A DNA stretch of 63,687 nt, counting the filler, from Kipferlia bialata (lineage: Eukaryota), in the NCBI GenBank assembly GCA_003568945.1. It is 4 parts of 4 records of this genome, joined end to end, with 100 filler letters (N's around TTAATTAATTAA, not from the genome) between each part and the next. Parts side by side here need not be neighbours in the genome. Positions count along the whole stretch, not along the records: positions 1 to 20,114 come from BDIP01000392.1; positions 20,215 to 40,318 come from BDIP01000393.1; positions 40,419 to 60,506 come from BDIP01000394.1; 1 more part is not named here. The stretch is one strand, 5' to 3'. Made by a program: the position numbers and the translations under genes. The notes under the pieces are model-generated. The model was given only the letters and a program-made list of their open reading frames with translations, ran no database searches and was not told the DNA's origin. Of this stretch, positions 1,767-59,999 are shown one piece after another. The first letter of the stretch is position 1, and the number at the start of each line of letters is the position of its first letter.

Positions 1767-4195
1767 ATGTCTGAGGTCGTTTCTGATGAGGATCGCGCTC
1801 TTGAGTACAAGAACAACGGGAACTCTCTCTTTAGAGGTAATATAATGTGCTTACGGGGGTGTTAGTGGATAGCATATTGTATAGTGTGTAATACTGTCCA
1901 GTTTGACATCTTATGTGCATCGTTAGAGCCTGATATCAGCCCTGAAGTACCAGGAGGCTATGGATATGTACTCCAAGGCCATTGAGTTGGCTCCCAACAA
2001 CTCTGTGTACTTCAGGTAAGCAGTAAGGATGGTGCATCGTCTATCAATACTGTCTCGTTTCAATGGTTCTCTCTCTGTTGCTCTGTTTCACACCCGTAGT
2101 TATAATCTAGTGTGCTTCTTGGTGGATTCAGGGCTTAGTACTCTGTTCTGTAGTAGAGTTGCTTTCGCATCTTATTGATTGCTGTCTCGCGTCCCGCGTT
2201 CACTTTGAACCACCCATCTCACCCTCAGCAACCGTGCCAACTGCAGCTACCACCTCGGCCACTTCACATTTGCCATTGAGGACGCCACAAGGGTGTGTGA
2301 TAGTGCCCATACTCGATGTGCCTTGGCTGTGTGTTCACTCTACAGGTGTATACACTATATATCCTCTCCCACCCCAGGCCATCGAGCTGAATGAGACATA
2401 CGTCAAGGCATACTTCAGAAGGGCAGAGGCCCACAACGCACTCAACCAGGAGGTACTCCTTGTCGATATCCCTCTTGATTACCGCATTGCACCTCAATCT
2501 ATTCTCTCTTTGGTGTATATATATATATGTATATATAGCACTCTGACCCCAGGATGAGGCCATTGCTGATCTGAAGAAGGCCACAGAGCTGAAGCCCAAG
2601 GTACAGTCACACACACATATATATAAGCATTACACGCCCTGCAGTACTCTCTCCCCGTCTTGTGTCTTCTCTCTCTCTTCTCTCTCTCTTCTCCCCCTTA
2701 CCCCTCAGGACAAGCGCCTCAAGAACAAGCTGGCCCTTGCCATCAGGGCCAAGAAGCAGAACCAGTTCAGGGCTGCCATTGCACAGAAGAGCATGCTGCA
2801 GGTATGTATAAATACACACACTACACACATATATATATATATATATGTATTAGCTGCACTTGTATGAGTATATTCCTGTGCTGCGCCCGTGCCCAGAAGA
2901 GCATGTTGCAGGTATGTATCTGTATACACATATACTCTATATATGCATGATGATACTGACCCCCCAGGTGGACAAGCAGAAGCCCAGCGCCTACCCCGTG
3001 CCCAAGGACTACGACGGACCCAGGATCGAGATGGCGGTACGTATGTCTATGCATGTACCTGTACCATTCTTCACTCTGTCTGCATACATATATGTGTGTG
3101 GTCGTGTTCCACACCCCTGCACCCCCTCACCCCCCAGGGCCAGATCCATGGAGGCATCATCCTCACTCTCTCAGGCTATATATATATATATAATTACTAT
3201 CATTAATTCAATATGTGTATCCTCACCCCAGGACCAGATCCACGGCGGCATCATCCGTGAGCTTGTCGAGTACATTGGCAGTGGCAAGAAGCTGCCTCTG
3301 CGCTACGTGTATGTGCTGATGAAGAGGGTCAAGGACGTGCTCGACAGGTAACCCCTACTACACACTCCCACTATTACTATTAGTGCATATATATGTGTGT
3401 GTTGAGTTCTCTCTCTCTAACCCCCCAGTGAGCCCAATGTATATACCATATATGAGTGAGATCTCTCTCTAACCCCCCAGTGAGCCCAATGTGCTTAGGA
3501 TCAACCTGGACAGGGCCAAGCTGGAGGGCCTCGGTGCCAAGAAGGCCCTGTCCATTGTGGGTGACATCCACGGACAGCTCTACGACTTCATCGAGCTGCT
3601 CAAGGTATGCGCAGATAACTACCTTTATACAGGGACTCTACTCTCTCTACTCTCTCTACTCTCTCTGTCCCTTTCATCGAGCTGCTCAAGGTATGCGCAG
3701 ATGCCTCTATTCATATAGGGATCTGTCTCTCTCCCTTATCTCCAGGTCAACGGCATGCCCTCTGTGTCCAACCCCTTTGTGTTCCTGGGTGACTACGTCG
3801 ACAGGAGGCCCCACGGTCTGTCCGTCATCCTCCTTCTCTTCGCCATGAAGATTGCATGCCCCCAGGGTGTCTACATGCTCAGGTACATCCCCACCCTCCA
3901 TCTCAATAGTATATATAGAGTGTATATATATATATATATCTGACTCATCCCAGGGGTAATCACGAGACCCGTAACCTCAACCTTATGTTTGGCTTCACCG
4001 CTGAGCTCAAGAAGGAGTACCCCAACGGAGACACAGACCTGCTCTTCAGCTGCATCTCTGAGGTACTCTCTCTCTCTCTCTCACGCACACACACGCACTA
4101 ACCCTCTCCCCCCCTCTCACCCATAGGTGTTCAACCACCTTCCCCTGTGTGCCCTCATCAACAAGTCCATCTTCTGTGTCCACGGAGGTGAGGCC

Positions 4196-4238
<43 letters not shown>

Positions 4239-4597
4239 TCTATCTTCCTTACTTCCAGGTCTCCCTGTCAAGTGTATGGCCTCTCTTGAGACCCTCGACG
4301 GACTCGCTAGGAGGTATGACACCGTGTGTGTGTATATATATATGTGTGTGATTGTATCCACCCCTCTCACTCTCCAGGCGCCAGCCCGACGGCCCCGTTG
4401 AGTCTGAGCTTCTGTGGTCTGACCCCAAGAAGTCCAACGCCATGGGTATGTATACTGTGTATCCTTCACCCCTTATATCACCCCCTATCTCCTCTCATAC
4501 CAGGCATGTATGGTATGCCTGCCCAGGGTGGAGATGCCGATGACGTGTCCTCTCTCCTCGGAATCACCCCATCCCACAGGTACCGATTACTATACAT

Positions 4598-4629
<32 letters not shown>

Positions 4630-5489
4630 GTAGACTCCTCTCTAGCACTCTCTCACCCTCCAGAGGCAGTGGCTTCTGCTTCGGTGCCGATGCGGCCTCT
4701 GCCTGGATGAAGCACGTGGGTGTGACTGCAGTGTACAGGGCACACGAGTCCATCCCAGACGGAATCAGACACGACTTCACAAAGTACGGCAGCTCTTTCT
4801 CTCTTAATATGAGTGTATGTGTGTTTGTGTATCCTTATGTCTCCTCTCTTACCCCTCAGGGACGGCAAGGTGTTCCACCAGGTTGTGGAGGACATGACCC
4901 CCACCCCAAGGCAGTACACTGTGTTCACAGCCCCAGACTACATGGGCATGAAGAACAAGGTACTGCATCTATATAGTGTATACATCTATGCATATTGTTT
5001 GTGTATCATTCTTTAGTATGTACTCACTGCAGGGCAAGGCCGCTGTTCTGTCTGGAGGCTACATTGTGCAGGAGATGGACAAGGCAGCTGCCATGAGGGG
5101 AGAGACAGACACCCCAGAGGTATATACTCTGTCTCTATGTGTATTAGTGTTTATATATGTATGTCCTGATCCCAGGTTGTCGAGGGTGGCGAGGTCGAGA
5201 TGACCCCCTCCTCCGAGGCACCCGAGTTCATCCCACCCGGCGCAGTCGAGGTGACACCCCAGCCAGACGCAGAGAAGAGTACGTGGTACCTACTATCTAT
5301 ACCTATTCATTCATCATTACTTCTCATGTCATGTTTGATAGTCTCTCTCTCTCTCTCTCCTGTATCTCTTACCCCCCAGACGCTGCCATGGGCGGCATGG
5401 GCATGGGAGGCGGCATGGGCGGCATGGGAGGGTTTGGCATGAACGGCATCAACCTCGCCATGCTCCAGCAGCTCATGGGCCGCAAGTGA
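1767..5489 (+). CDS. PPP5C: Serine/threonine protein phosphatase 5 (N-terminal TPRs + PPP catalytic domain), about 18 exons
   Basis: Spliced product: ALEYKNNGNSLFR, AIELAPNNSVYFSNRANC, AIELNETYVKAYFRRA (TPRs); YDGPRIE linker; GDIHGQ, GDYVDRR, RGNHE, HGG, LLWSDP, RAHE, TVFTAPDY; stop TGA 5487-5489. Confidence 0.93.
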
Positions 5490-6916: not shown

Positions 6917-9900
6917 GCAATCTGGAGCGTGCCCTGTACTACCTGGACAGGGCACTCAAGCTGGCTGCCCCTGCCACCAGTGCACCCACGCACCTCAACC
7001 TCTGTGCAGTGCTCAGTGCCACAGGTAACCCTTCATATATACACCATCTCTCTCTCTCTCTATGTATGTCTATACTGTTTAAGGACCCTGGCCTCAACCA
7101 ATGTGCAGTGCGCGGTGCAACAGGTGGATATATTCCTACTCTCTCTCTCCCTCCCTCTCTCTCTCTCATCTATCCTTTACCTCAGTGCCACAGGTACCTA
7201 TTCACTCATTCACCCCCCCCCCCCTCTCCTCCCTCACCCTCCAGGCAAGCACAGTGAGGCCTACCGCCATGCAGCATGTGCTGTCCAGATATTGAGGTGC
7301 GTATAGTTATGTGTTGTCTATTAGTAGCCACCATAGTCTGCACTGATATAGTGTCACCTCCAATATTGCTGCTCCACTATGTATTATGTCCTGCCCTTCG
7401 TCCTACATGTGTCTCACCCTCTAGGGAACAGTTTGACAGTGAGGACCCCCTGCCTGTGGGTGCGGCCAAGCCAGGCGAGGTGAGGCACAGTCTACCACGA
7501 TATACGTATATATATGTGTGTTTGTGTCTGTGTATACTCAGTATACTCAGACCCACCCACCCCGGTCCTGCTCTGCTGTTACTATCCTGCCTGCACTATG
7601 TCTCACCCCCCAGGTCCTCCCCGCTGCATACCACAACCTGGGTGTGGAGCAGGAGTTCCTGGGGTACAGAGACGCAGCAGCACAGAGCTACCTCGATGGA
7701 TACAGGTGGGACAGTTAGATACATCTGTTTATACTGTCTTGAACCCCCCCCCCCCCCCTTACTGTTATATATTGTCATACATTATATTACCCTAGTCTCA
7801 CCCCCAGGGTTGCTGTCCAGATGCTGGGTCCTGCCCACCACATGGCACTGGTCCTCCAGAGGTGGGTGGGGTGTATATGATATGTAGTAGTACTTGTCTC
7901 TGTGATGCGTCGTTGTGTATATATGCCATATGTCATAATCATGTTCCCTTTCTCACTCCCCAGGGCCCTGTCTGAGCTGCGTGACCCCACCCAAGGGTCA
8001 GTGCCCCCACCCAGTAGAAAGAAGGTTAGTACTTGTATGGGTATGTACTCTCCATACTACTGAACTCCCTTCTTCTTGTTTCTCTCTATCTCCTTCTGTC
8101 TCCCAGGGCAAGGCTCTAATCACTCATTCGATATCTCCATATCTCTCTCTCTATATATACATATCCTTCTTACCCCCAGGGCAAGGCCAAACATCTGCTC
8201 TCTCTCTCTCTCTCTCCTTCTCACTCCCAGGGCAAGGTCAAGCGCAAGGTGACCAGGCAGCGCCCAGTCTCCAGCAGGGGCAGGGGCACCAAGGCCTCAA
8301 CCCGTCGCCCAGCCAGTGCCAAGCGCCGCAGACCGGCCAGCGCGAGTGCCCGCAAAAACACCAGGCACCTCTCTGCGACGTCTGTGGCCAGGGAGAGGCA
8401 GGGGGTGGGGCGGGGTGCACGCAGCAGGCGGCCCCGTGCCCAGTCTGCACTGAGTGACATATCCGACATATCCATGATCGAGTCACAGCTGCAGACAGAG
8501 CGCAACACCCGCATGTCCAGCCAGTATGAGGGCCAGATGCAACAGACACAGGGGGGGTATGGTCAGGCGAGACTGCCCCCAGAGTCCATGTCAGGTGTGT
8601 CTATGGGTGGGACCCTGGGGGGCACGATGGGTGTGAACAGTGGGCCCTACCAGTCAGATCAGGCCGGTCTGAACGGGATGTCCTTTGCAGACAGGTCCTA
8701 CAACGCTGGGGCACAGGCACAGGGACAGGGCGGGTACGGGAACCCACCGCCCTATGGGGGCCCAGACCCAAGGGCACCCACCCAGCCCCAGGGGTACCCA
8801 CAGGGCATGGGGACACAGCCCCCACAGCCGTCCCCGCTAGGTGCCACTGGGCCCTACGCCCACTCCCCCCAGTCCACCGGTCTGCCCAGTGGTCTGGACA
8901 GCTTCGTTGCCTCCCAGCTGCAGTCCCCGAGTGGGCTGTACCAGAGCCAGGGGCCTGGGGCACAGGATCAGACTGGTGGTACTGGAGGTACTGGGGGGAG
9001 TGTCAGGGGGGTTGACAGTCCGTACGGTGTCAAGCAGGCTGCCCTGCTCGCCCAGAACTCCCCCCTGCACCCCGGGTCTACTAGAGACCCCAGAGGCAGC
9101 TTCGATGGGAGGGATGCCCAGATGCGACAGGCCACAGCCAACGCCGCACCTGTGCCCAGCCCCCACGGCACCTACCCTGATGCACAGCTCATGACATCCC
9201 CTGCCCCAGGGAGGGACATTGACAGTGCTAGTGTCCAGACAGAGGGTGCTAGGGGGAGGCTCTCTGCCACCACTCCCCCTAGGTCCAGACAGAGTGGAGC
9301 CGCCTCTGCTGCGGCAGCCTCTCCCGCTGCTCTGGCCTCCCCTGCCACAGACCCCCTGGAGTCTCTGGAGGTGAGCCCTGGTGTTGCCGGTGTGCGTGCC
9401 TCCTCAGCAGCTGCCCTCTCCCACAAGAGTAGTAGCAAGAGGTATGATGGGAGGTTCGTGGACTCCCAGCTGAGGCGTGTGCACACCTCACAGGATGGGG
9501 AGGCCCTGTCAGTGACTGGGTCTCTGTCTGGTATGGGGGAGACAGACACACCCGACGGACCACTGCCCCCAGGCACTCCTGTCAAGGATAGGGAGGGGGA
9601 GAGAGAGAGAGAGCCCAAGGGCACTGGAGGTGTGGATGCCGATGTGCTGAGGGGTATTGAGGAGTCTAGTCTGGAGGAGAAGGGGGAGAGAGAGAAGGGG
9701 AGGTCCAGGCCCCCCTCTGTCTCTGCCAAAAAGGGGCCAAGCAGACAGTCATCTAGGCAGGGCTCTAGACAGGCCTCTAGACAGGCCTCGAGGCCAGGGT
9801 CGAGGGATCTCTCCAGACAGAGCTCCCGACAGTCTAGGCAGTCCAGTAGACAGAGCGGGGCAGTGCCTCTCAAGGGTGGGAGGCCTGTGTCATCAAGGGC

Positions 9901-12139
9901 CTCTGTCACTAGTCAGGCCGAGGAGGCAGAGAGGGAGAGGGAGAGGGAGAGGGAGATAGAGAGAGCTGAGGAGGAGGAGGAGCGCAGTGCTCGCGTGGCT
10001 GTGCTGGTTGCCAGGCGCAGTCAGTCCAGCATGGACATGTACAGAGACAGAGCGCAGAGGGAGAGGGCGAAGAAGAGGGAGAGAGAGAGGGAGAGCAGGA
10101 GGCAGAGGGCCATCGAGGATGCCGAGGAGAGGGCCAGAGACAGGGCGGCTGAGGCAGAGAGACTGGCTGCGGTGGCACTGCTGGAGAGGACAGAGGCCAG
10201 CGAGGCCTCCTCCCCAGCTGCTCCGGCTCTGTCCCTCCCTGCCTCTGCCCCTGAGTCCCCCCTATCAACGGTGGAGGGCAGGCCCCGCCTGTCTGTATCT
10301 GCCTGTCCCATCGACCATGCCACAAGGGTGGAGGGGGTGCAGGGAGAGAGAGAGGGAGAGTCAGGTGGGGATGTGCCCAGGGTAGGGTCTGTGGCTGTGC
10401 TTGAGCTGACTGTGGAGAGAGAGTCCCAGCAGGGCAGTGCCCCCCACTCACCCCTGGGCAGTGAGGGTGATGCCACAAGGGAGGATGTGGTATCCACCCC
10501 CCAGGTGTTTGCGCAGCCTGACAGGTCTACCCTCCCCACCCCCACTGCATCACCCCCTGCCACACACCCCACAAGGGCAGATGGAGAGGCCGTGGCTACT
10601 GGGGGGTGCTCGGAGGGTGGGACGGAGCTGGCAGAGTGCCCGGTCTCCCCTGTCCTAAGGGGTAGGGAGAGTGGGGGAGCGGGTGAAGCCGGTGAGTATG
10701 TCTCCCTGTCTGAGCGTATGCAGTCTGTGGCACTTAGGAGTGTGGAGACTGAGACCGAGATGGACACAGAGGCTATGGAGAGAGAGAGGGCGGTAGAGAG
10801 AGAGAGACAGGCGAGGGAGGATGAGGAGAGGCAGCGTGAGAGGGACAGAGAGTCCATGGAGCGGCACCAGAGAGAGGCTCTGCTCGCTAAGGAGAGGGAG
10901 ATGGAGATGGAGAGAGAGAGAGAGGAGACGCGGCGCCTGCCCCCCAGGGTCAGTGCCCCTCTCCCCCCCGCACCCCCTCCCTCCTATACCAGACCCCACA
11001 CCGCGTCCACCGTCAACCCCTCTCTCTCACTCTCCCTGTCGGACTCCCGGTCCCACCCCTTGGCATCGAGATCAGCACTCTCTCTCTCCTCCCCCAAGCC
11101 GAGCCAGTCCAGCACAGACGCCCTGTCCCACCCTGCCACCCCTCTCTCCCTCTCGGAGCCAGGGGCCTCCTCCAATGCGAGGAGGGACAGGGGAGAGAGG
11201 GCAGACAGCGTGAGGGATGACGGGGGTATGGGGTCGAGTGCTCTGTACATGGGTGGTGGCATGACATCATCCAACAGCTCTCTCTCCCTCTCTGTCTTCG
11301 GTAGCCAAGGGGGAGCAGGGGCCTTCGGGGGTACTAGTGCCCCACCCCTAGAGGACAGGGGTAGTATGGGGGAGAGGGGGGAGGCCAGGGGTCGGCCTGG
11401 GAGGTCAGTTGTATCCTCCGCTGCTGATGCCCCCCCTACTCTCTCCACCCACACCGGTGTGACTGGCATGGGAGTGCCTAGCAGACACAGGCTGCAGGTG
11501 GAGGGGCTGACCAACAGGCTGGCCTCTGCTGCCGAGGGCACTGACTCCCTGGGTGCCAGTACGACATCTCTCCTCGGGTCCCTTATCTCACACGAGAGGG
11601 AGAGAGAGAGGGCCACGGGCAGCAGGAGCAGGCCGAGCTCTGCGAGGAGACCCCAGGATAGGGGTCCCCCTGTCTCTGGCGCTAGAAGGGAGAGGCCCTC
11701 CTCGGCTGGTCAGAGGACCACCTCCATAGCCTATGGGTCAGCTGCCTTTGGGATAGGGACTGCCAAGTCCCCACTGATGCAGTCTCTGAGAGAGAGCAGG
11801 GCACAGTTGGACAGGGGTAGACACACCCAGGCACAGGACGTGGAGGTGTCCAGTGTCAGCAGTCAGTACGGGCACATTGAGATGGAGTATGCGCAGCCAC
11901 AGCCACATGCACAGAACCCTGCCCGCTCTGACCCCGTCTCCTACAGATCCCTAGACACCTCTAGGGTAGGGGGCGGGTCTCTGAGTGCCAGGGGTAGGGC
12001 CAGCGGGTACCATGCCTCCTCAGGCCCATCTATCTCCATGTCGGGGTCCGGTGCTGACCTTGGTGCTGGGGTGTCTGATGACAGGATGCAGGCAGCACTC
12101 AACGCAGCCACCCAGAGACTGCAGAACTGGCACGGCTGA
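6917..12139 (+). CDS. TPR-like helical repeat protein with about 1300-aa low-complexity/coiled-coil C-terminal exon (5' part missing)
   Basis: Small exons splice to NLERALYYLDRALKL...THLNLCAVLSATGKHSEAYRHA...AAYHNLGVEQEFLG...AAAQSY; terminal exon 8231-12139 is open throughout. Confidence 0.75.
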
Positions 12140-12326
12140 GGATGATACCTTGTAATAGATTCAATGTGTGAATATGATATCCCTATTGACATGAATGAGG
12201 GTATGAGGTTTGTAGCCAAAAACCAACTGTGTTAGAGACTCTTTTTGTGTTGTCAGTCTGTCTTTGCAGTGTCCTTTGGTGCGTGGTAACACAACAGACC
12301 AGCTACGCAGCCTGGACTGCGGCAGT

Positions 12327-38757: not shown

Positions 38758-38794
<37 letters not shown>

Positions 38795-39827: not shown

Positions 39828-39879
<52 letters not shown>

Positions 39880-40265
39880 CAACCTATATAACTAAATATA
39901 ACGATTGCTAACCTGTCCTGACGTATGATGTGCCTGTGAGTGTCACCTCCACCTCGGCCTTGGGACCAAGGGCATACTTGGCCTGGGGTCAGGTATGTAT
40001 ATATATATATATATTATATTATATTATAGATATATATTGTATATATACTATACATATGTGGGTGAATACATATATCCATGCTATACAGGGCATACTTGGC
40101 CTGGGGTCAGGTATGTATGTATATATATATGGTTGCACTACTCTGAAATCACAAACTTGGCATACCATTTGACTGTGGACACATATCTCCTATACTACGC
40201 ATATAAATAAAATGATTACATATATATACCCACCTTCTTGTCCTTCTTGTCTGTGTCTAGCACCC

Positions 40266-41458: not shown

Positions 41459-41503
<45 letters not shown>

Positions 41504-41910
41504 CCTGCTCTCACCCCAGAACAGCACTCGGGTGTACATTTGTCAGTACACAGTCAGGACTGCAGGTATGTATGTATGTATATGAATGTATGCGTAGGAA
41601 TGGGTATATTAGGTCTATTCTGCACATATGCAAACAGTCAGAGTATTGCTGACCTAATCTTCTCTCCTAGCCTCCTCCCTCCCTCCCTTTCCGTTTCTGG
41701 CCCTTCATCTTTGTCTCTCTCCCTCTCTCTCTCTCTCTGTCTATCTCACGCTCTCTCCCTCTCTTTCAAATATGTTCTCCACTTCATCTCTCTCTCTCTC
41801 TCCCCCCCACTCCTCACCCCAGACATTATATATGTATATATTCATATATATATATATATATATTTGTATATCACCTCACCCCAGTGCAACACTTCAGCTC
41901 CCACCGGTTC

Positions 41911-41944
<34 letters not shown>

Positions 41945-42916
41945 CTCACCCCAGTGCACCACTTCAGCTCCTACCGGTTCTCTCTCTCTCTCTCTTTCTC
42001 TCTCCCCCCCCCTCTCTCTCCTCACCCTAGTACTCCACTTCAGTTCCTACCGGTTGATATCCTACAACGCGGTCAGGTATGGGATCCTATATATATACAT
42101 ATAACAGGTAGTATCCTGTACTACGTGGTGTTGATTATTATTTATTATTTGTTACAATTTTCCAACAGTCCTTCATGCTCTAATCTATAGGAATATTGAT
42201 GCCTGTCTGTTTGCCATGGCCCTTGTGACTGTATATGCATATATATATATAATATTATTATATATATACACATATATATATATGGAATAATGTCAATGAT
42301 ATATGTATTATATATATATGGTATAGTATCGCTCTAATTGTTTGCCCTTGCCCTATGGACACATTATATATATATATATGTATACAATATATATATATAG
42401 TATGTATATATATGTAATATCCTAATCTCTAGGAACATTGATGCGTGCCTGTCTGCCCTTGCCCTATGGACATTATTAATGTATATATACTACATCCTAT
42501 ATACTATATATATAACATAATGTATTTGATATACTATTGGCCTAATCTCTAGGAATATTGATGCCTGCCTGTCTGCCCTTGCCCTTGGTAACCAGCCCCT
42601 GCCCCTACATCTGACATATAGGTATAATATATATATATACACAGATACATTTACCTGCCCCCACCCCCATACAACTGGTATATAGGTTTGCAATGTAAAA
42701 TGCCATATACTAATAGTATTTTGAATTTGTACTGTGTGTATCTTGTTTCCCACCCCATACAGGTGGTGTATAGGTATGCGCATTGTGATATATATACTTA
42801 TCGATCGATCTGAAATCCCAAGCGATACCCTTGTTATGTCTGGTCAATATACAAGGAAGTCACCCCAAGGTATCCATATTATGTAGGATACGTATATAAG
42901 GATATATATATTATAT

Positions 42917-42948
<32 letters not shown>

Positions 42949-44503
42949 CCTTACCCTAGGGACGCCCTTCGGTGTCAGCAGTGGCCTGGTGTATCCGTAC
43001 AAGTCTATTATGTATAATAATAATATAACATATATATAAATATAGTGAATTATTCACTTCAGGGATGCCCTTCGGAGGCAGCAGTGGCCTGGTGTGCTGT
43101 GGGGAGTTTGTCTCAGAGGTAAGGACTCTTGAACAGTAACTATTCTCTCTCTCTAGACCCTTTTACCCCAGGCTACTCTGTTGTCCCTCAGGAAGTATTC
43201 TCTCTCTCTCTCTCTCTAGACCCTTTTACCCCAGGCTACTCCATTGTCCTATCAGGTGTCACGGGCAAGGGTTATCTCAATGTACGTTTATGTATAGATG
43301 TGTAATATGTATAGAAATGTGTAGTGTGTAGTATGTGTATAGTATGATATTGGCAAGGGCTATCTTAGTGCACATATATATGTATATATACAACCATCTA
43401 TACATTGTTTTTCATATATATAGATATATTCACATATATAGGTATATATATTATGATATTGGCAAGGCTATCTCAGTGCGTACCTTACCGTTGCGATGGT
43501 AATTGTGTAGAATTGATTTCTGGTAGATTGAACCTTGGATTGATTCTTTCATTGATTCCAGGCGTCCTCGGGGCTACGTGCATTTGGTGCAGAGGTTCTG
43601 GACAGTCTAGGTGAGTCTCTCTCTCTGTCTCTCTCTCTCTCTCTCTCTACACCCTTATTACCTGAGCTAAGAGACATATAGGGTGTATATGATATATATA
43701 TTTGTTTTAGTATGATCATTTCCCACCTCTTTGTCCCCTTCTCTCTCTCTCCCTCTACACCCTTATTCTCAGGCCCCCTCCAGTGGGACAGTGANNNNNN
43801 NNNNNNNCTCTACACCCTTATTCTCAGGCCCCCTCCAGTGGGACAGTGACTCTCTCTCTCTCGACACCCTTATTCTTCCACCTATTTGTCTCCTTCTCTC
43901 TCTCTCTCCCCCCCTCTACACCCTTATTCTCAGGCCCTCTTCAGTGGGACAGGGATACCAAGAGGATTGTGTTGGCTAACAGGGGAGGTATTGAGCGTGC
44001 TATGTACTTAGAGTACACTAATAGTCTTTTAGTATTAATAGTGTATAAAGTGTGTGTTTAATAGTATTTAATTTGCCAAGAGTTTAGTGATCGGCAAGTA
44101 ATTGTATATATAGACATTCTATACACGTTGTACATATGTTCATATATACAAGTAGACTATGATATCCAATAATCTATCCTCCATTTCAGGCACCCCCACC
44201 GTGTGTGATGCCCCCAAGTGTGTATTGATCCAGCGTGTAGATACTAGTATATATGTATATGTGTGTCAGTATATATATATATGCCTATATCTATTAGTAT
44301 TTCTAATTCCAGGCACCCCCACCGTGTGTGATGCCCCCAAGTGTGTGCCACCTGTGCCTGTGGTCAACTCAGGGTATCTCTCTCTCTATCTCTCTTATGT
44401 ATAAGGGTGTAAAGGATATATTGTTCTGGATACATGTATATTCTTTGTAGTGTATTATATTAGTCCGATGAGTGTGCCACCTGTGCATGTGGTCAACGCA
44501 GGG

Positions 44504-44541
<38 letters not shown>

Positions 44542-46770
44542 GGGTGTACTGGGGAGTATACCTATATATACCTCACCCTCAGGTGGCTCAGTATATATAT
44601 GTGTTCATACGTACTAGGCCTAGTAATATATATTTTTATATATTCTGTTTATATCTTTCTGTGCTCTTCCATATATACCTCACCCTCAGGTGGCTCCAGA
44701 CCCTCATGAAGGAGTGCATAGTGCCAGAGTATGCAGAGTGAGTATATATATACATTTATATACCCATATGTAAATATACTTATATATTCTATCATCAGTA
44801 CACTATATATATATATACCTTGTATTCATATATATACCCTCATGAAAGAAGGCATGGTGCCAGAGTATGCAGAGTGGGTAGTATATACATATATATATTT
44901 ATATAATCAATACACTGTATATAAACACCTTGTATTCATATATATACCCTCATGACCGCAGGCATGGTGCCAGAGTATGCAGAGTGAGTATTTGTTAATA
45001 TCTATGTATATGTAGGGTACATTATAGTATATATATGAATGACACCACTATTCACTATATATACGATATTTATGCGCTCATGGCCAAGTACCAGAGTATG
45101 CAAAGTGAGTGATATATAGTGCCTGAGTGATATATATATGTGTCAGTACACTATATGTATATCATATACTAATTACTATTGTGGGATGCCTAACCCTCAG
45201 GTTCCCTCTGAAGCCTCTGTGCAACCTTGAAGTGACAGCAACCGGATTCCTCGGTAATAGTTCTCTCTCTCTCTATACACCCGTATTACACTCACAGGGA
45301 TTGTTGTGACAGATCAGTCATTCCCTCAGTCTCTCCCTGCCCCCTCTCTCTCCCTCTACACCCTTATTCCAGACAGGAAACTGTACAGGAAGTACCGGAA
45401 CATCATCACCCAGGTACTATCTCTCCCTGCTATACTATCTCTCTCCCCCTTACACCCTTTCACTCTCCTTGCATATATTCTGTTCATTATCTCTCTCTAC
45501 CTACACCCTTATGCTTCCTCTCTCTCTCGTGCTTCACCCTTATTACACAGGAACTTGATGGCACTGTCCACGAGTCTATAGACCCAAAGACCAAGATTAA
45601 TCTGGTCATAGTAGGTACAGTAACTTGACTATGATGGACCATGGTTGACTATACGTGACAATTCTTGACCCTCATTGACTTTCCATGACTGTTATTGACC
45701 CTGATTGACCCCTTAGGACCAGACTGGAGTGCCAAGAGAGTGTCATTGGTCACCAACTTAACCACTAAGATTGGTAAGTGTGATGTATAGGAGGAGTATC
45801 CATAATGGATTTCCACTGCTATTTGAAGTATCAGAGAACATGGTGTTATTAGCTTCTATATATATTCTTCCTTATATCAAGGTTTTGCCCTCTCTCTCTA
45901 TCTCTATCTATCTATTCATTTCCAGGTTTTGCCCTTGATGCCAACTGCCAGATAGTGTCACTACAGTGGCTGGACAGGTATATATATATATGAACACTTC
46001 GCATATGTATATATATATCTATAATATTGTATAATAACGATATATAGATATATATATATATATATAGAAATTGATGTATATGTAGATAGCGTCTCTACAG
46101 TGGCTGGACAGGTATATATAGATATATATATATACATATTCATATTTAGTAATAATAGTGTATATATGCGTATATGTACAGTAATTGATGTATATACAGA
46201 TNNGTAATAATAGTGTATATATGCGTATATGTACAGTAATTGATGTATATACAGATAGCGTCTCTACAGTGGCTGGACAGTAATAGTTTTAATATATATA
46301 TTCAATTATATAATATATAATTATATGAGATAATAGCAATATATACATGTATTCAAATATTGTAATAATAGTGTATATGTATATATATATATATAGTAAT
46401 TGATGTTACAGTGGATGGACGGGTATATGTATATATATAGATTGATAGATTTACAGTATATATATAGAGAGAGAGAGTGTGTGTGTGTGTGTATATATAG
46501 AGATGTGTATGTAGGTGTGTGAATACATATCCAAAATGCTGTATATCACCAATAATTATCAGTTTCTATAGTATATACATTGATATGTTAGTATATATAT
46601 ATGTGTGTGTGTATACTGATGCTGTAACCCCCAAATCTACTAGTACCATTTCGTAATATATTTAAGCTTTTCTTGTTCTTTCTGTATAGCATGAGACCCT
46701 TTATGTATTACTAGACCCTAATATCAGGATACGCTCTACTGGGAAGTGGGAGACACCAGACATGACGGAG

Positions 46771-46813
<43 letters not shown>

Positions 46814-49800
46814 TAGGTAGTATATATGTATAGTGTATATATGTATGTATGAGTGTATATTGCATATAGTGGGAGATACCAGACATGACGGAGAAGGTAT
46901 AGATATGCAGCAATGAATGTTCACATATGTATATAGTATATGTATGTGTTTGTGGGGATAAATACAAAGTACATTGTGGGAGAGCAGACATGGCAGAGAG
47001 GGTAAGATTAAATAAAACTTTTTATTTAATTTAAGAATAAAATTAAAATTTCTAATTTCTAAATTAAATTTAAAAATGAATTTAATTTATAATAAATAAA
47101 ACTTACTCTCTTGACATAGATTCTAATACACACTTGTGTATATATATTGATTCCCAGGTCCTTTGCAGCAGTTCCATTCAACTATAGTAGTATTATTTAC
47201 TCTATGCGCATTATTAGAATAGATGTATATATATATGAGTGTGTGTATATTGTTATGAATATGGGTGTGTGTCTATTATTATTATATATGTGTGTGTATG
47301 TATGTATATACTAATTCACAGACAGAAGCTGGAACAGGAGGCGAGGTCATTCATGTAATGTTCTATACTCTCTATTGTATTACTATGTAATTGTATTTAT
47401 ATATATATATGTGTGTGTGTGTATATTATATACTAATACCCAGGTCAGAGAGAGGGTGGAGCAGGAGGCGAGGCCCAGACCGTTCGTCAAGGAGAAGGTA
47501 GGACTTCTCTCTCTCTCTCTCTCTCTCTCCCTACACCCATATTTCAGGTCTACACTAAGCTCTCTGGTAGCAGGATCTGTATCGCTGGGTGTGAGAGAGG
47601 GGATCCCGACTTCAAACAGGCAGAGGTATGTATTATACTATACTGTATGTGAGGTACTGTATATATCATACTATATAAGTATCTGCAAGATTCATACTAC
47701 ATTTATGCATACATTATAGTGACAGAGGGGGGACCCAGACTTCAAACAGGCAGAGGTAAGATCCTTGTATATTTTGTATTGCTGTGACTGCTACTATAGA
47801 GGTTTCTCACACTCTGTACCTTTCTCCCTTTATACTCTATTGATTGTCACAATCTCTTCCTTTACACCTATGCCTCATTTCACTCCTTCTCCAAACCTCT
47901 CCTTCCCTCTACACCCTCATTGCACTCTTCCATCTCTATCTCTCTCCATCTACACCCGTATTTCTCTCCTCCTCCTTCCCTCTCTCCATCTGCACCCTCA
48001 TCTCTCTCCTCCTCCTTCTCTCTCTCCCTCTACACCCTTATTTCACTTCTTCTTCGTCTCTTAGAAGTTCTCTCTCTCCCTCTACACCCTTATTTCAGCT
48101 TGATGGGTTCAACATTGTGGCATTCTCCGAGATCCAGCAGGAGCCTACAAAGGGTATGAATATATATATGTATGTATGAGTAATTTCATACAAATATGTA
48201 GTATATTCATATCTATATATGTATATTCAGCAGGAGCCCACAAAGGGTATGTCTATACACATATATGTACTATATACATAATAGTATATCAATCCTGTCT
48301 ATATATATAATACATAGCCTCCAAAGGGTATGTCCATATACATGTATTCATATATATCTGTGTCCGAGTATTTATGTGTTCTCACCTGAATCCCCTGGTG
48401 TCCAAATATTTTACATATACATTTAGATATTATATATAGACATATTATATATAGATATATTATACATAGATATATTATATTGACATTTAGATATTATATA
48501 TATATTATATATAGACATATTATATATAGATATATTATATATAGATATATTTTCTATATATATTAATTTTACATATATTTTGTAGATTTGTATATTAGTA
48601 CTCATTCCATGCGTCTACCTCATATATGAGGATGACACCTTCCCAGAGTACAGTATATGCATATATATAAATAGGTCAATTATATATACACACACATATA
48701 TATATATTCACTAACTTAAGGGGTGTACATCATCTCCAAGGATGACACCTACCCAGAGTACCAGGACACACTGCAGAGCATGGCACAGGGAAACAGGTAT
48801 ATATATGTATGTATACTAATATGATATATACTATATAAGGGAAACATGTATATATATACATACCAGGACACACTCCAGAGTATGGCACAGGGAAACAGGT
48901 ATTGTTAAAGTATTACATATATATACATATATGTAAGGATTCATATCTGTATGTATGCATATGTATTTAAATTGAGTATTCGTTCCAGGACACACTGCAG
49001 AGCATGGCACAGGGAAACAGGTATTGTCCCAATGATACATGCATATATATAGTAACCATATATTGGGGATCGCACAACTCCAATATGTATAAATGTAAGT
49101 ATATATATATATATGTTTATATATATTAATATATATATATGAATACCAGGACACACTCCAGAGCATGGCACAGGGAAACAGGTGTGTGTATGTACATGTA
49201 TGTATTTATACTAATGGCACACTACTAATCTAATGCCCAGGCTGCACTCCCTGGCCTTCTACTAGTTCTGCACAGCCATATATATACTATCAATATATAT
49301 ACTATTTTATACATTATTTATACATTATTACTATATGTATTCACTATACTAATCCTCAGACTGCACTCCCTGGCCTTCTACCAGTTCTGCACTGCCAGAG
49401 ACACACAGCCCACAGCCAACCTGCTGCCAAGGCTGTTTGAGGTGGGTATATATATATACAAAATGTATATATATATATATATATATATGTGCTATTGTAG
49501 TTATTAGTAATACGCTGAACACGTTATATTGTAGATTCTCACAGCCCACAGCCAACCTGCTGCCAAGGCTCTTTGAGGTATGTATGCACATATATATATG
49601 TATATATACTAACTATATGCATATATGTATACTAACTATATGTATATATATATATGTATATACATATATACTAATAGTATACCAATATGTCCTTATCCCA
49701 GCCCTCCCCTCCCCCTCGGCACTTAGAGAACCAATCAGTGCTGATAGTGGGAGATGAGAAGGGTATGATGTATATATGTTAATATACAATGAATATGTAG

Positions 49801-51160
49801 TATGTATTATATACAAACATACTTGTATCTTGTAGACAGTGCTGATTGTATCGGACGAGAAGGGTAGGGATAGATATATACGCCTCTCCAGATGCGAAGG
49901 GAGAGATGGTCTCTCTCTCTCTCTCTCTCTCTCTCTTCATCCTGACCCTTATTTCAGGACCTGATCATGCCCTATGTGCCAGTCTGTGTGTGCAGCGTCT
50001 TGGAGGTTCAGTAAAGGGTGTAGAGGGGAAGGGAGAGGAGACACCGGATGCATGGGAGGGTATTACCTTGGTGGTGGACCTAAATCAGGTATGTTGTATA
50101 TATAGTGTATATCTATAGTATATGTCGGTTACTCATAAATACTACTTATAGTGGCTACACCCTTGTTTCAACCCTCAGGACCACCAGGAGAGAGCTGTTG
50201 AGACTATGCATATATATATATATATATATAGCTCTCTATACATGTATAGCTACGATGCACCCTTTTCTCATTCTTAGGACCATCAAGAGGTTGAGAAGAG
50301 GAAACTATATATATAGTATATCTATAATATATATTGGTGAGTAAATCATTAATACTTCTATAGTGGCTACACCCTTTACTCACCCTCAGGACCACCAGGA
50401 GAGAGAGGTCGAGAAGAGGAGACAGGGCCTGAGGGGGGCTGAGGTGGTACCCGTGGTGACGAGGTATATACTTTTATTATAGTATATATATACATTCATA
50501 GATAGCTTGAGAGAGAGAGAGAGAGACAGGGCCTGAGGGGGGCAGAGGTGATACCCGTGGTGACCAGGTATATACTTATATTATAGTATATATATGCATT
50601 CATAGATAGCTTGAGGGAGAGAGAGAGAGAGAGACAGGGCCTGAGGGGGGCTGAGGTCATACCGGTGGTGACCAGGTATAGACTAGTGTATAGAGTATAT
50701 ATATACATTCATAGATAGTTTGATAGAGAGAGAGAGAGACAGGGCCTGAGGTGATACCCGTGGTCACGAGGTAATCCGTAAGACATACATTGCTGTATAT
50801 GTATTCTTATTCATATACACATACACACCAGTGGTGAAGAGGTAATACGTATATAGTAGTGGATACTCTCTGTACTTCTCCCGCTCTCTATAAGCCTCCA
50901 GTTTCTGACCTACATAAGCCAAGTGTACTCGTGTTGGTATTTGAGTGTAGTAGATATATACAATAGTATACAATACTCTCACTCCAGGGGCCATCAGTTC
51001 CTGACCGACCTACAAGTGAATGGATACATTTGTATATATGCTTAAAAAAAATTGTATGCTATTTGTTTATGTATGTATACTTCTCTCACCTTCAGGGGCC
51101 TCCAGTTCCTGACCAACCTCCTGGGCATGCCTGGGTCAGGGGGGGCTAGGTATGCATATA

Positions 51161-51193
<33 letters not shown>

Positions 51194-52930
51194 GTCTAAT
51201 GATAGTAAATATATGTATATATTTGCATTTACTATGTATATCTATATGTCTATATATATATATATTTCCTGACCAACCTGCTGGGCATGCCAGGGTCAGG
51301 GGGGGCTAGGTATACATTGATATATGTCATATTCATTATATGTGTTATATATGATATATAGTTATATATGATTTGAGAGAGAGAGAGACTCACTACATAT
51401 ATGTATGGGGCTAGGTGATGGTATGACTGTTCTTTGAATTGATTTGAATTGATATGAGTTGTTGCTCTCTCTATCTCCCTAAGTATACCACTATTATTGC
51501 TCTCTCTCTCTCCGTGTGAATCAATTTACCCCCAGTCTCTCTCTCATTGATGTGTTCTCTCTCTCTCTCTCTCTCTCTGTATACATATATACCCCTCACC
51601 CCCAGTCTGTCTCTCCATGAGGCCATTGATGTGTTCTCTCTCTCTCTCTCTGTGTGTCTATATATGTTGCATCTCTTACACGCAGTCTGTCTCTCCATGA
51701 GGCCATTGATGTGTTCAGACACGAGCCAATCACAGAGAGGTATGCAGAATGTAGTGAACACTATAGTTCTCTCTACACCCTTTATTCACCTCAGAGGCAA
51801 CATGGATGGCCTGGACTCACTCCTAAGCACTGTGAGGGCACAGAGGTATGTATATATGTATATACTGTACATATGACTATACCTAATAGTATATGTATTT
51901 TACAATAGACTACAAATATATATATACATATGTGTATGTATATGGATGGCCTGAACTCACTCCCAAGCACTGTAAGGGCACAGAGGTATGCACTAATATA
52001 ATGGCATAAAGTATATGTATATATTTCTTATTGGTATGAATGTATATACAAATATATATGGACCATATTTGGATGGTACCTTATGCCTCACCCTCCAGGT
52101 CCGCTGTACCACTAGATGTCAGCCCAACCTCGGGACACTCAAGGCTCAAGGTATTATATATATGTATATATACACATATATATTATGTATACATTATACT
52201 ATATATGTATTACCTCTGGACACTCAAGACTCAAGGTATTATATTGTATACATATGTATATAGATAGGTAATACTATTTATAGATAGATAGATGGATAGA
52301 TATCATCTGGACACTCAAGACTCAAGGTATTATAATGCAAATAGTCTAGTATATACATTATGTATTGATATACATTATGTATATATATATATGTGTGTGA
52401 GTGCCTTTGCCTTGACCTCTGGACACTCAAGACTCAAGGTATTCTAATGGCTAATAAGGCACTATTCAAATGGGTATTTATGTTCTAACTATATAGTTAG
52501 GAATTATTGCTTCTAACAATAGGTGCAGAGCGAGAGAGAGAGACTGGAGGAGATTGAGAGAGAGAGACTCAGGGCCAGTGAGGAGAGACACCGAGAGAGT
52601 GAGGAGAGGCGGTGGATTGATAACAGGTATGTATGTGTGTATATATATACTGTTTGAGTAGCAGTTAAACCGGTCTTCCCGTCTTTTAGCCGGCTGCGTA
52701 TATATCACATACTTGATGTGTTTCGTTCTATTAGGCCCAGTAATGCCCCATAACCGGAGCAACTACGGCAGTATTATCCAAAGATAACTATATTCATGTA
52801 TAGTCTATGATCAGTGGGGACCTATCATTCTCTTACCGTCTTACAATCTCGACGTCTAACCGTCTTACCGTCTAACCGTAGCAACTACGGCAGTATGACC
52901 CAGGACAAGGCAGGGGTCATGTGGATAGAC

Positions 52931-53435: not shown

Positions 53436-56400
53436 ATGAGTGTACCCTTCACCCAGGCACAGTGCATCCACCCACACAATGCCCTATACACAGATGATTG
53501 TGGTATGAACATAGTGGATAGACGTGTTCAGAGGGACCCTGTAGTGGGCGACGGGTCGCAGCTTGTCGGTTTCGCAGTGGAGTCTCACCACCTTGTATGT
53601 ATTGACCCACACACTATACTGCACATAACAACCGGTACACGTCGCCTCAGGTGTGTCTCTCTGACAAGACCAGAGGGGGAGGCATCAGGTATTGTCGGTA
53701 TATGTATATAGTGCATTATATATTAATACCATTAGTGGTAACTATAGATATTTGGTGTATAATGGCCTCAAGTGGGTCTGTCTGACAAGGCTAGAGGGGG
53801 AGGCGTCAGGTATAAAGAAATTCTTATAGGTGAATAGAAGTCTCAAGTGTGTCTCTTTACCAACAGACTTCCAGAAAGTGAAAGGAGAGACACAGTACTA
53901 TCCCTCATACCTGAGAAGAGATATGGACTCGTCCATGTACGGCAAGTTTCCAAGGTAACCATATGTATAATTAAATACATATGTATATATATATATGTTG
54001 TGTCCATGTACCGCCAGTATCCTAGGTAACCATATATGTACATATGTATAGCTTTGTGTGTGTGTGTATGTGTACATAATACATATATTCAGATGTATAT
54101 GAAATATTTGTATATATACAATATAGTAACAATATTATATAAACTATATATATATATATACTATACATGGAGGGAGAGAGGATATGGTCCATATCATATG
54201 GAGTCGCCCATCATGGGCCCCATGTACGGGAAGTTTCCTAGAAATACCAATACACATATATGTATACGTATACATATCAAAAGTATCAATAATAGGGGGA
54301 TGCTCTATCTAACACCCTGGAATGTGTGCTGCTTACAGTATGTATATGTGTATAGTATATACCTACCATGTAATTAACAGAGTATACATACTAACCACTT
54401 AGAGAGGTCTGCTGCTTTGATGCCGCCAGGGTATTTAGGGTAGGGGACCATGTCTGTGTGTGCTCACGCTCAAGGAAGCTAGGATGCAGGTTAGTACAGA
54501 TACATGTTCTGTCTGAGGATACATGCAACTGTACACTGAAGTGAACCACATATATCAACAATAGATCCATCCACGCAAGGAAGCTAGAGTGCAGGTATAC
54601 ACAGACACATGAAGTCATATACTGTGAATTCACAGTAAGAATCAGCCACATACCAACGATATATACATCCATACCCTGGACCTCTTTACATATATCGAGA
54701 CTAGGCATACACTAGAACGTGTTAGTAAATATGTGAAACAATACACCAATGTCAGCTACTTTCACACCCTAGACCTCTTCACCTGTATCGGGACTAGAGA
54801 TATATGATATTGATATATGTATAGATATATGGTACTATACATCGAGTATTAAGCAACTCAACGCCAGATATATCCACACCCTAGACCTTGTCACAAGGTC
54901 CTGGACAACTGTCAGCCTGGACATACTAGACATAGAGGTACTCTCTCACTCTCTCTCTCTCTCTATACATGCTACCCATAGAGGTACTCTCTCTCTCTAT
55001 ATATAAATATATACATGTTACCCATAGAAGTACTCTGTCTCTCTATCTCCCTAATAACATGCTAGCCATAGAGGTACTATCTCTCTCTCTCTATACTTAC
55101 TACCCATATGGTGATTACTCGCTTGGGCATAGAGGTACTCTCTCTCTCTCTCTTTCTCTATACATACTACCCAAATGGTGATTGGTCTCTCTCTCCGACA
55201 AGTGCAAACTCTCGACTCGTAAGTTAGTAATCATTCCGGAAGTGTCCATTTTATAGGGTTTTTCAATCAATTATAAGGGGGCACTCTCTGATCGTAGGTG
55301 CAGTCTATACCGTTCGACCACAACACATAAGCGTATTACTCCTGCTAGTGTTTACGTATTCTTATCAACAGGGTCCAGTTGTGGAGGAGGAGAGCATCCC
55401 GAACCCTCGTGCTCGTTTCCATGATCCAACTTTCCCTCAACATCTTTGGCCTCAGGTAGAGGCCGCTCTCAACAGCTATTCTCCTACACTGTACCTCCAG
55501 GAGGCGCGTAAGCGCAGTAACTCTCTGCATTTATCCCATACTGGGGGTGGAGAGACTCTCACTGAGGCAGAGACTGATGGGTTGCACCAAGACTCTTACC
55601 TAGCCGAGTGGCCACGCAACCTTATGACCATGTGTGGAGAGGTCATTGTGAGCATTAGGGAGCAGCTTTCAACACACTTCACCTCACCCCTACCCCTCAT
55701 TGCATTTGATCCAGTCCAGCAGGGGTACACTAGGTTACAGTATCAGGACATTGAAGTGCCCCTCCCACCTCTGGGCTTCACGACGCCTGTCTGGACTGCA
55801 GTACTAGGCGAAACAGCCTATATGCTCGTACCAAGCATGGTTTGTGATCCTGTCTATCGTGTGAAGGTGTCTCTCTACACCTACTCAGGTGGGGTATATA
55901 TGTGTAGAAATGCATGATACATATCCTATGTATGTATACATACATATTGCGTATATATATGCGTGTGTGTGGCTTTTGTACTGAAGTGGCGCCTCATGCA
56001 TGTACTCACACATATAGTATATACTTAATATATATATATTCTCATCTCTAGACAGAGTCGGCTGGGGTATGGCCCAGCTCTCTTGGCAGGACACCCTCAT
56101 AGGTCTAGATGAACTCTACAGTGAGTCAAAGGTCTTACAGGTGAGAGAGAGTTACGAGTCTAGTTATCAGTACTTATCAGTGTTCTTTCCAAACCTACTG
56201 AACCCCTCAATGAGTCAAAGGTACTGCAGGTACTCATATCCTCCCTAGTATTTGAGCCATAAGTCAATACACGCATCCTAGCCATTGTAACAATGACTCA
56301 AGTGCCTGACATTCAGACTGAATGTCACATTCCTCAGTACCACTATTAGAGTGTCTCTCTTTCAGTAGTTCTGGTTACCTCTTTCCTTCTGTTAACACAT

Positions 56401-57604: not shown

Positions 57605-58123
57605 TTTGGCATTGAATGTGATACAGGCAATATCATGGTGTAGTCTGGAACTAAAGGGATGGAAGGGATTCTATAGAACTGAATCATGTTTACAGAGTGG
57701 CAACGACTAGAATGACTTGGACGTCTTATGTATACTGTGGTACATTCATTACTATTGTCACCAAATGGTGTAAGGATGAAGCAATAGGACTGCTGGTGTA
57801 TATATGCGTGTGGATGGTGTATTCGTGGCAGAGTGATTGTCCATAAAGAGACAGTGTCTGCTGAAGACTGGAGACTATAGATACTGACCATATCTATATG
57901 ATACGTATCACACTTTGACCAATAGATCGGATGTGGAGTATGGATCTCGTCAATAGAGAGGGAGATGGGGTATCTATTCAGAGTTACTATACTAGATACT
58001 ATCTAGTAGATACTATCTAATAGACCTGTGGGTGTTTATGATATGTGTCTCTCTATGATAGAATACCACTGAAAGCACTACGCGATGTGGTAGTATCTCT
58101 CTAGCTTGAGATCTTCAAGAAAT

Positions 58124-59999
58124 CTATTGCTCCTCTGGACCCTCAATCAGCTTGAGATCTTCAAGGGTCAACTCCTTGAGTTCCCGACGTAGACAGTCGA
58201 ACTCTCCCCCAGTCAGCCGATCAGTCTCAGATGCCCAGTATTCTACGTCGTCTTCACACTGATGGTCAAGGATGGTCAGGGTATATGATGGTTAGGTCAA
58301 GGATGGTCAAGAACAGCAAAGGGATAAATGACTAACACTGGTAAATGTGTGAACGCACATATCCTTGTGTTCACTGATATGTATATATACAAACACAAAC
58401 CACAAGTGTATACAGGCATGTCATATATTTGTGGTTGTGTATATATATGTGTATATATCCACAACCAGTACCTCAGGGTACTCCTTCAGTGTGAAATCAC
58501 CATATCACATTAATACCTCAGAGAATTATTTAGTATTCTTCATAGAGAATATATGGACTAAATATATCGATACCTCAGGGTATTCCTTCAGTGTGTTGTG
58601 TCTGAGGTGTGCTGCCAATATACGGCGCCTCTCAGCCTGTTTGTTATAGGTATACACTCTCTGGTGACTCTAATTCGCAGTAAAGTATCGGTGTATAGAA
58701 TATATAAAGAATACACTCACCAAAAATACATACTCACCAGCTGCCACCAATGCTGACCTACCTGGTGCATATGCATATATCTATAATGTATATGTATTCT
58801 TACAATAATATACAGGAATATACTCACCTGCTGCCACCAATACATGTCTAGCATCCTCTCTAACTCCCTCTCACTGGATGTCTTAACTCTGTGGCGTGTG
58901 GCATACCAGTCAATCATAACACCTATGGTTAGGTGAAATACATATATATTGTACATATGTATATATAGAGTATACATATATATATACTGTGTGGTGTGCG
59001 GTGTCATAGTCCATCATGACACCTGGGGTGAATACTATATATATTATACTATATATATACCCTATACTATATACTATATGTATAGTTACTATACAGAATA
59101 GTATACATATATGTATACTGCATGTACTGTGCCTGTGCAGTGTGGTTAGGCGAAATGCATATATATACAATATACTATATACATATATATATATTCTGTG
59201 GGGAGGTGGATGTCCCAGTGAATCAACGTGACACCAGGATGACAATTATATCCGGTATAACACAATTAGATATGATATAATAGTAAGGGTACCCAATGGG
59301 GATAGATGTGTGAGTGCGTCTGTATAGAGAAGGGGGGTAAGACACTCATCCCGACAATGAGACTGTTAGGTTGTGCATTCCATTTCCCACACATTACCAG
59401 AACAAACACAACTCCAACTGTATCTGGTGTGAAGTATACACCGTGTATACTCTATTGTATGCTGGTAATTTACAGTCACTTACCGTTGGTAGCCAGTATC
59501 TCTATCCTCTCCTCCTGTTTCAAGCCCATAAACTCTGCCTTTTCCAGAAATATGGGTGGGGGATAGGTAGTCTGGGTATTAATTATCATACATATATATG
59601 TGTGTGTATACGTCCAATATACTATATCATATACACTCTATATGGGTGAGGGGTAGGCAGTATGGGTATACATGAGTGTACACATATATTTATGTGTGTA
59701 TATATCATATACACAGAATAGTATATACTATGTGTGGATTGGGGGCAGGCGGTATATATTAGATGTCGTGCCACTCGCTGGAGGGATAACTTGGTACTGA
59801 TCCTGATACTGATACTGAATAGCAGAGACAGATGGCATATATATGTTCATAAGCATTGATAATAACATACATATGCATTATACAGTATAGTAATAAACAT
59901 TGTATATAATAACATTGTATATACACTCTGATACAAGGTATGTACCTCCTCGGCAGATCCCTGTGTCCCCTCAGCACCACTCACACCCCTAGGACTCAT
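58124..59999 (-). CDS. Hypothetical multi-exon protein
   Basis: ATG 59999; exons giving PPIFLEKAEFMGLKQEERIEILATN|GVMIDWYATRHRVK..MYWWQQ|AERRRILAAHLRHNTLKEYPE|CEDDVEYW..IEGPEEQ*. Confidence 0.6.

Follow-up and report, generated by a model that had tools for sequence, protein, structure and literature searches.

Known duplications at splice junctions

Minisatellites that span exon-intron junctions are known from single human genes: the 37-bp variable number tandem repeat (VNTR) in intervening sequence (IVS) 7 of F7 and the repeats in IFI6 (6-16), CBS (IVS13), LMNB2 and PDGF (PMC1557585). Here we describe duplications at splice junctions, termed echoes, in a window of 63,687 nucleotides from the free-living protist Kipferlia bialata (GCA_003568945.1; the window is the whole stretch analysed, four contigs joined with spacers). 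In an echo, an exon edge recurs together with its splice site in the flanking intron, either as a donor echo downstream of the exon or as an acceptor echo upstream of it. As in F7, the repeat unit spans the exon-intron boundary and the donor is reiterated within the intron (99 of 105 echoes are anchored at the exon edge), and just as normally the most upstream donor alone is used in F7, one spliced contig skips nine echo sites here. However, the F7 type comprises single loci with near-identical units and donors alone (PMC1557585), whereas in the Kipferlia window about half of the introns are affected and acceptors are echoed as often as donors. Nor are the monomers near-identical here: the intron-derived flanks of the echoes, alignable in examples, are 62% identical (background 53.5%) and reach at least 80% in 9 of 97 cases, and it is the exon-derived part that shows a codon-phase constraint.

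In intron gain by tandem genomic duplication an exonic AGGT is duplicated and both copies are used for the new intron, as has reportedly happened in the RdRp gene of potato. A second related process is concerted evolution, in which gene conversion makes tandem duplicates exchange sequence, so that polymorphism comes to be common to the copies. The echoes differ from the latter in that one partner is a noncoding fragment of 30 nt, the constraint signature of which would report exchange between haplotypes. With the former they have in common that tandem duplication reiterates splice signals (ATP2A1; PMC3265369), but in Kipferlia an existing junction has been duplicated, the extra sites are unused and no completed gain was found.

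Although junction duplication itself is thus known (F7 intron 7 VNTR), its density in Kipferlia and the silent-site signature described below are new as far as we could find: a literature search, which did not extend to subscription papers, returned no report of either, and neither "duplicat" nor "tandem" occurs in the main text of the species' genome paper.

Echoes in the window

All counts refer to this window and not to the whole genome. Nine gene models, none with an internal stop, were built by chaining coordinates and contain 107 introns (105 GT-AG and 2 GC-AG, the latter at 20615 and 26683 on the + strand, that at 20615 backed by the spliced contig X2). An echo was called when local alignment of a flanking exon with its intron scored at least 26. 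The kelch-like gene, the segment 38152-38907, the genes at 1–1.6, 5.9–6.8 and 55.3–57.6 kb and the last contig were kept out of the counts. At this threshold there are 105 echoes (60 donor, 45 acceptor) in 59 of the 107 introns, which is the fraction of introns matching an adjacent exon end that the preliminary description had left to be counted. The threshold is reached by 0.15% of 8808 unrelated exon-intron pairs, by 1 of 214 inverted controls and by 6 of 1910 pairs with non-adjacent exons of the same gene. A shorter splice-anchored pattern adds 11 introns (70/107; chance expectation about 1.4 hits). The genes concerned are:

1767..5489, + strand: PP5 gene, 20 exons; model equals P0001; Pfam PPP5/Metallophos
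2890 (donor), 3140 (acceptor) and 3673 (donor), + strand: PP5 echoes found by alignment, in 3 of 19 introns at the strict threshold; in addition a short acceptor echo at 3410
6917..12140, + strand: TPR-like gene; donor echoes at 7092 and 7181, short acceptor echoes near 8107 and 8180
19482..19957, – strand: 3' end of a GST-like gene; donor echo near 19681, acceptor echo near 19945
20370..33665, + strand: PH, Rubicon-homology (RH) and zinc-finger gene, its 5' end off the contig; echoes in 25 of 35 modelled introns
34200..39982, – strand: HSP70/GRP170-like gene; echoes in 9 of 15 modelled introns, 38152-38907 unmodelled
40868..52626, + strand: BRCT-like gene; echoes in 19 of 28 introns
41002-41290, 48861-49180, 50513-50770 and 52212-52445, + strand: arrays in the BRCT-like gene, by alignment
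53651..55140, + strand: kelch-like gene with echoes; outside the statistics, as its frames do not chain
58574..60035, – strand: hypothetical gene with decayed acceptor and donor echoes (alignment, short pattern)

The PP5 assignment is firm: an exon retrieved P0001 from Kipferlia bialata at 100% identity, and the 20-exon model translates into the same 586 residues. Pfam matched PPP5/Metallophos in PP5, and RH_dom and RING-like exons of the 20370..33665 gene below the curated cut-off; it gave no match for the tested exon of the TPR-like gene nor for that of the HSP70/GRP170-like gene. The BRCT, GST, TPR, GRP170 and PH labels are those of the preliminary description and are putative. Searches with single exons for the annotated PH/RH protein gave no match.

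Every individual echo cited in the preliminary description was recovered, at most about 15 nt away from the position given there: donor echoes at 2890, 3673, 21228, 26105, 46868 and 50513, acceptor echoes at 3132-3162, 3410, as a short pair near 8100/8173, at 27798-27833/27898 and at 44183-44223. The consistent polarity reported there was likewise recovered, since 99 of 105 echoes end no more than 7 nt from the splice-proximal exon edge and none touches the distal edge. As a sign of a directional process, however, polarity had to be given up: after a tandem duplication across a splice site the exon body remains attached to the outer copy, so that polarity follows automatically from the geometry.

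The exon-derived part of an echo has a median length of 29 nt. Introns with echoes are much longer than those without (medians 304 and 106 nt), and the stretches from a true site to the innermost echo site make up about 41% of the modelled intron bases (26,783 minus 15,724), which supports a repeatable local duplication that inflates introns and leaves the reading frame intact. The median spacing from site to site is 108 nt, near the normal intron length, and the nearest echo site lies less than 50 nt from the true site in 2 of 85 cases, as against 32% under a uniform-length null. In all 9 introns with both types the donor echoes precede the acceptor echoes. Splice signals are mostly intact (GT or GC in 54 of 57 donor echoes, AG in 34 of 42 acceptor echoes), and 33 donor and 22 acceptor echo sites score at least as high as the true site. 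Some array copies share variants, and 15 of the 105 echoes are identical to the exon.

Two other sources of such copies were considered and rejected. Introners or transposon-made introns do not account for echoes that each match only their own adjacent exon. Tandem or mutually exclusive exon duplication would be expected to reach the distal edge, which none of the 105 echoes does; the one whole-exon copy, frameshifted and near 53773, lies outside the models. The suggestion that the process generates new introns or exons was not borne out: similarity between adjacent exons was seen in only 2 of 107 pairs, of which one is borderline and the other rich in Ala/Glu, neither of them convincing, and there is one 18-nt hybrid micro-exon candidate.

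Two multi-intron genes with less AT-rich introns (12328-19262; 12.3–14.5 and 15.6–19.3 kb), roughly delimited and with frames unchecked, are free of echoes (0/23 introns), unlike their neighbours, which indicates that the process is regional or that its density varies by gene. With these two genes the strict count is 59/130 introns.

Read support

For positions 20280-21630 (1.35 kb) the window was compared with read-derived DNA contigs of run X1; the arrays at 21.6–22.5 and 23.9–24.9 kb, for which the preliminary description had asked for verification, were covered in part or not at all. X1 contigs match 20350-20986 and 21036-21347 without a difference, spanning true sites as well as echoes, at a depth of 417–425. 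Contigs specific to single copies, including those that cross from intron into echo, have depths of 393–526, the same as single-copy exons, whereas the 45-nt segment common to the array at 21567 has a depth of 1400, about 3.3 times single copy (shared segments 893–1400). No X1 joint in this interval skips an echo. Echoes are therefore full-depth genomic copies and not half-depth alleles; that they are real is confirmed, and an assembly artefact is unlikely.

This bears on the explanation that alleles of a mixed or heterozygous sample were concatenated by the assembler, from which divergent introns and a bias to silent differences would follow at once. Four N gaps lie inside arrays, and X1 may be the source sample of the window, so that the comparison tests for an assembler artefact and is not an independent sample. 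However, since contigs bridge the intron-echo junctions at single-copy depth while shared segments are correspondingly deeper, this explanation is hardly credible.

Splicing at echo sites

The 5' part of the PH/RH gene shows which of the duplicated sites are used:

20275..21606, + strand: stretch with RNA support; spliced X2 contig (0 differences) and X1 DNA contigs
20370-20435, 20533-20614 (GC donor), 20878-20932, 21037-21134 and 21524-21606, + strand: exons according to the X2 contig
~20289, 20789, 21228-21264, 21331 and 21416, + strand: echoes unused in the X2 contig
21567..22085, + strand: donor array; exon tail 21567-21606 and four echoes (21691, 21823, 21952, 22053), all skipped by the transcript
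22183..22497, + strand: donor array; Leu-Leu-Lys in three different silent spellings (exon and two echoes)
22609..22626, + strand: candidate 18-nt in-frame hybrid micro-exon with AG and GT flanks (sequence only)
23898..24730, + strand: donor array with five echoes and nested sub-echoes, in which the four-gamete violation was found

The X2 contig (2315 nt) is spliced through the five exons without differences; it starts at an outer acceptor and continues into exon 22148, the start of which forms its loose end. It skips nine echo sites in favour of the outermost ones, passes over inner introns of about 150–175 nt and has the letters of the outer copy at diagnostic positions. The choice of the first donor together with that of the last acceptor fits a pairing of sites across the exon. 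In human genes, of competing sites those closest across the exon are chosen when the flanking introns are longer than about 250 nt, whereas short introns favour the inner pair (PMC9225289). This exon-centric rule predicts outer-site use on both sides, as in the X2 contig. It should be noted, however, that it holds for long human introns, whereas echo-free introns in Kipferlia have a median of 106 nt and the inner alternatives were skipped nevertheless. Of 174 spliceosomal proteins 87 are listed for K. bialata (PMC6679479). The 5'-to-3' scanning rule proposed for F7 (PMC1557585) explains the choice of the donor but not that of the acceptor. The 9 introns with both echo types could also be spliced in two nested steps, inner intron first. 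The lone exception to the order of donor before acceptor echoes is sub-threshold and forms the candidate micro-exon 22609-22626, which joins the head of exon 22729 to an echo that stems from the tail of exon 22148. Retention of the nearest echo is in frame and free of stops in 7 of 67 families, and echo retention as a source of in-frame isoforms was rejected.

Silent-site signature

Differences between echoes and exons are biased to silent sites, a coding-constraint signature in noncoding copies that was missed in the preliminary description. In 68 families (2057 sites) there are 98 silent and 74 replacement distinct changes, a silent share of 98/172 where about 24% is expected, and the ratio of replacement to silent differences per site (pN/pS) is 0.24 (family bootstrap 0.17–0.33; 0 of 5000 resamples at or above 0.5). 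Codons with a single hit alone give 90 silent and 55 replacement changes (27 multi-hit changes dropped). Stratified by substitution type the ratio is again 0.24, in the two wrong frames it is 1.69 and 1.70, and kappa at fourfold sites is 1.26; on these grounds we rejected the view that the excess of silent changes is due to base composition or a bias to transitions. A few copies beside the four small N gaps could be scaffolding duplicates; without the echoes near N (99 of 105 kept) pN/pS is 0.22 and the statistics are unchanged, so that gap artefacts as its driver were rejected as well.

The simplest explanation of the echoes is duplication by slippage on the same chromosome, followed by neutral decay of the copy, silent change of the exon and occasional conversion in cis, as in a minisatellite of the F7 type. 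The exon-identical echoes and the variants shared within arrays agree with it, and the ratio of acceptor echoes, 0.38, comes nearer to 0.5 than that of donor echoes. For a dead copy beside a constrained exon simple counting gives a lower bound of 0.5, which also holds between echoes if these are serial snapshots of the exon. The ratios observed are, however, 0.24 between exon and echo and 0.29 between neighbouring echoes (32 silent, 30 replacement; p = 2e-6 against neutrality, p = 0.023 against the 0.5 bound), and under the serial model 18 silent and 9 replacement changes are left unexplained by change in the exon lineage. Slippage also predicts that pS rises with rank, but pS is flat at 0.15–0.17 for the first, second or third echo from the exon, as expected for draws from a pool and not for ageing. 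In a two-locus simulation (N 150, 12 settings, independent sites) five clonal settings with conversion in cis gave a pN/pS of 0.59–0.96. Slippage with decay is therefore a very unlikely explanation. Five settings with recombination or inter-haplotype conversion at theta 0.1–0.15 gave a pN/pS of 0.21–0.34, a dS of 0.14–0.25 and a dN of 0.04–0.06, and the two settings in which diversity was low in spite of exchange yielded 0.68 and 0.90; within the 12 settings ratio and distances were thus both reproduced only by inter-haplotype exchange at theta 0.1–0.15.

Low ratios would also result if echoes were selected directly, whether sometimes read into protein or having a function at the RNA level. 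Donor echoes have a pN/pS of 0.15–0.20, as low as a working exon, the splice signals of echoes are mostly intact, and contigs hide minor isoforms. Against this stand the outer copy's letters in the transcript, the few families in which retention of the nearest echo is open (7/67), the donor echoes without an acceptor in front and the fact that an untranslated RNA role would not track codon phase. Direct selection appears quite unlikely.

Origin of the echoes

It is somewhat more probable than not that haplotypes have recombined out of register and that echoes were thereby copied, or later refreshed, from divergent alleles of the exon that were functional. An echo would be born when repair of an intron break or a stalled fork re-copies about 100 nt back into the exon and rejoins them out of register; the structure is seen, the cause is conjectural. 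It would survive if, across the short exon, the spliceosome pairs every donor or acceptor with whichever partner lies closest, a rule suggested by one transcript; outer sites would then win in spite of inner introns shorter than 250 nt. Echoes near the true site would likely be purged, and so would an acceptor echo that has a donor echo downstream of it. As AT-rich introns diverge fast, exon-like islands may be the only sequence that still pairs between haplotypes, and echoes would for that reason be refreshed from other alleles: an echo would take the sequence of another haplotype's functional exon, or remain while the linked exon is swapped. What separates an echo from its exon would then reflect the variation that exists among functional alleles, about 15% at silent sites, and decay would have added little.

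The repair genes fit the proposed mechanism. K. bialata is reported to be without NHEJ (non-homologous end joining) and Rad51A and to possess Dmc1 paralogs. In the inventory of PMC8516963 metamonads lack Ku or DNA-PKcs, Rad51A has been lost in Fornicata, and the rows for K. bialata list Dmc1 (four entries), Spo11 and PolQ; human DMC1 is tolerant of mismatches (PMC7809202). The related Carpediemonas is predicted to be haploid; with haploidy, occasional exchange would be compatible with reads that look homozygous.

Low pN/pS and flat pS are, however, equally expected if two long-diverged homologs in one diploid, polyploid or hybrid lineage had exchanged sequence and then undergone loss of heterozygosity, with no ongoing outcrossing. 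The proposal that fornicates depend on homologous recombination for repair (PMC8516963) favours this alternative, but the X1 reads compared hold no variant letters, and codons with three states across exon and echoes (arrays at 22183 and 29811) exceed what two homologs give without later mutation. We consider it unlikely, albeit the foremost alternative to copying from a population of alleles.

Several observations weigh against an allelic origin of the echoes. The allele pool is itself inferred: a metagenome scan for a second strain or allele gave one 37% relative (L001), and the absence of variant letters in X1 over 1.35 kb means that the sample is haploid or homozygous there and that a diversity of 15% is not visible. 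A pairing length of about 30 nt is short for homologous recombination. The signal is weaker in acceptor echoes (0.38) than in donor echoes (0.16), three genes with few changes give a pN/pS of 0.55–0.87, the four-gamete test is violated in only 1 of 8 multi-copy families, and the simulation is a crude one that treats sites as independent, with a small N and 12 settings. The RNA support comes from one contig of one gene, the RNA status of X2 is a guess although the contig is spliced, contigs drop rare isoforms, and nonsense-mediated decay of mis-spliced forms could hide the use of inner sites. Finally, echo junctions resemble microsatellites no more than other parts of the intron do (p 0.73), on which ground a preference for microsatellites was rejected, and the excess of (TA)4 in introns with echoes (50/59 as against 16/48) is confounded with length.

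Taken as a whole, and tentatively, about half of the introns in a single Kipferlia genome may serve as an archive in which further functional alleles of its exons are kept. Haplotypes about 15% apart would recombine, by sex or parasex in a hyperdiverse population, a reduced spliceosome would pair sites across exons in spite of 100-nt introns, and a Dmc1-only repair without NHEJ would be the engine.

Implications

If this is true, echoes are a footprint of genetic exchange in a group in which sex has not been directly observed, and from a single genome one could both test for sex and estimate how diverse the population is. The loss of NHEJ and Rad51A would be linked to intron growth. For K. bialata 124,912 introns have been reported (PMC5874029); should the density hold across these, there would be tens of thousands of natural experiments with duplicate splice sites, bearing on exon versus intron definition in a protist with short introns. 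Annotators should be aware that an echo can be mistaken for an exon and that echoes can disrupt assemblies made from short reads.

Other features of the window

In PP5 the start of exon 15 (4504-4579, + strand) resembles the preceding donor region, and this exon appears to encode an insertion after the WSDP motif when compared with typical PP5. The TPR-like gene has a single low-complexity exon of 3.9 kb (8231-12140, + strand) in a genome otherwise of micro-exons. In the HSP70-like gene (– strand) a new AG/GT closes an acceptor echo that derives from exon 38152, so that a candidate 27-nt in-frame mini-exon duplicate arises at 38332-38306. The model could not be chained across 38907-38152, where a candidate 13-nt micro-exon and an exon-like tail behind a GA repeat point to exon sequence that is missing or collapsed. 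The kelch-like gene contains a decayed copy of the whole 37-nt exon 53651-53687 at 53773-53810 (+ strand), with AG/GT on both sides and frameshifted by a one-base insertion. An intronless kelch-like 3' end is present twice on the last contig, in diverged copies (60640-60850 and 62000-62200). A long, near-perfect inverted repeat is intergenic (14810-14865), and ordinary short tandem repeats lie outside splice junctions at 48406-48583 (15-nt, AT-rich), 33985-34095 (about 26-nt) and 57372-57603 (12-nt, coding-like).

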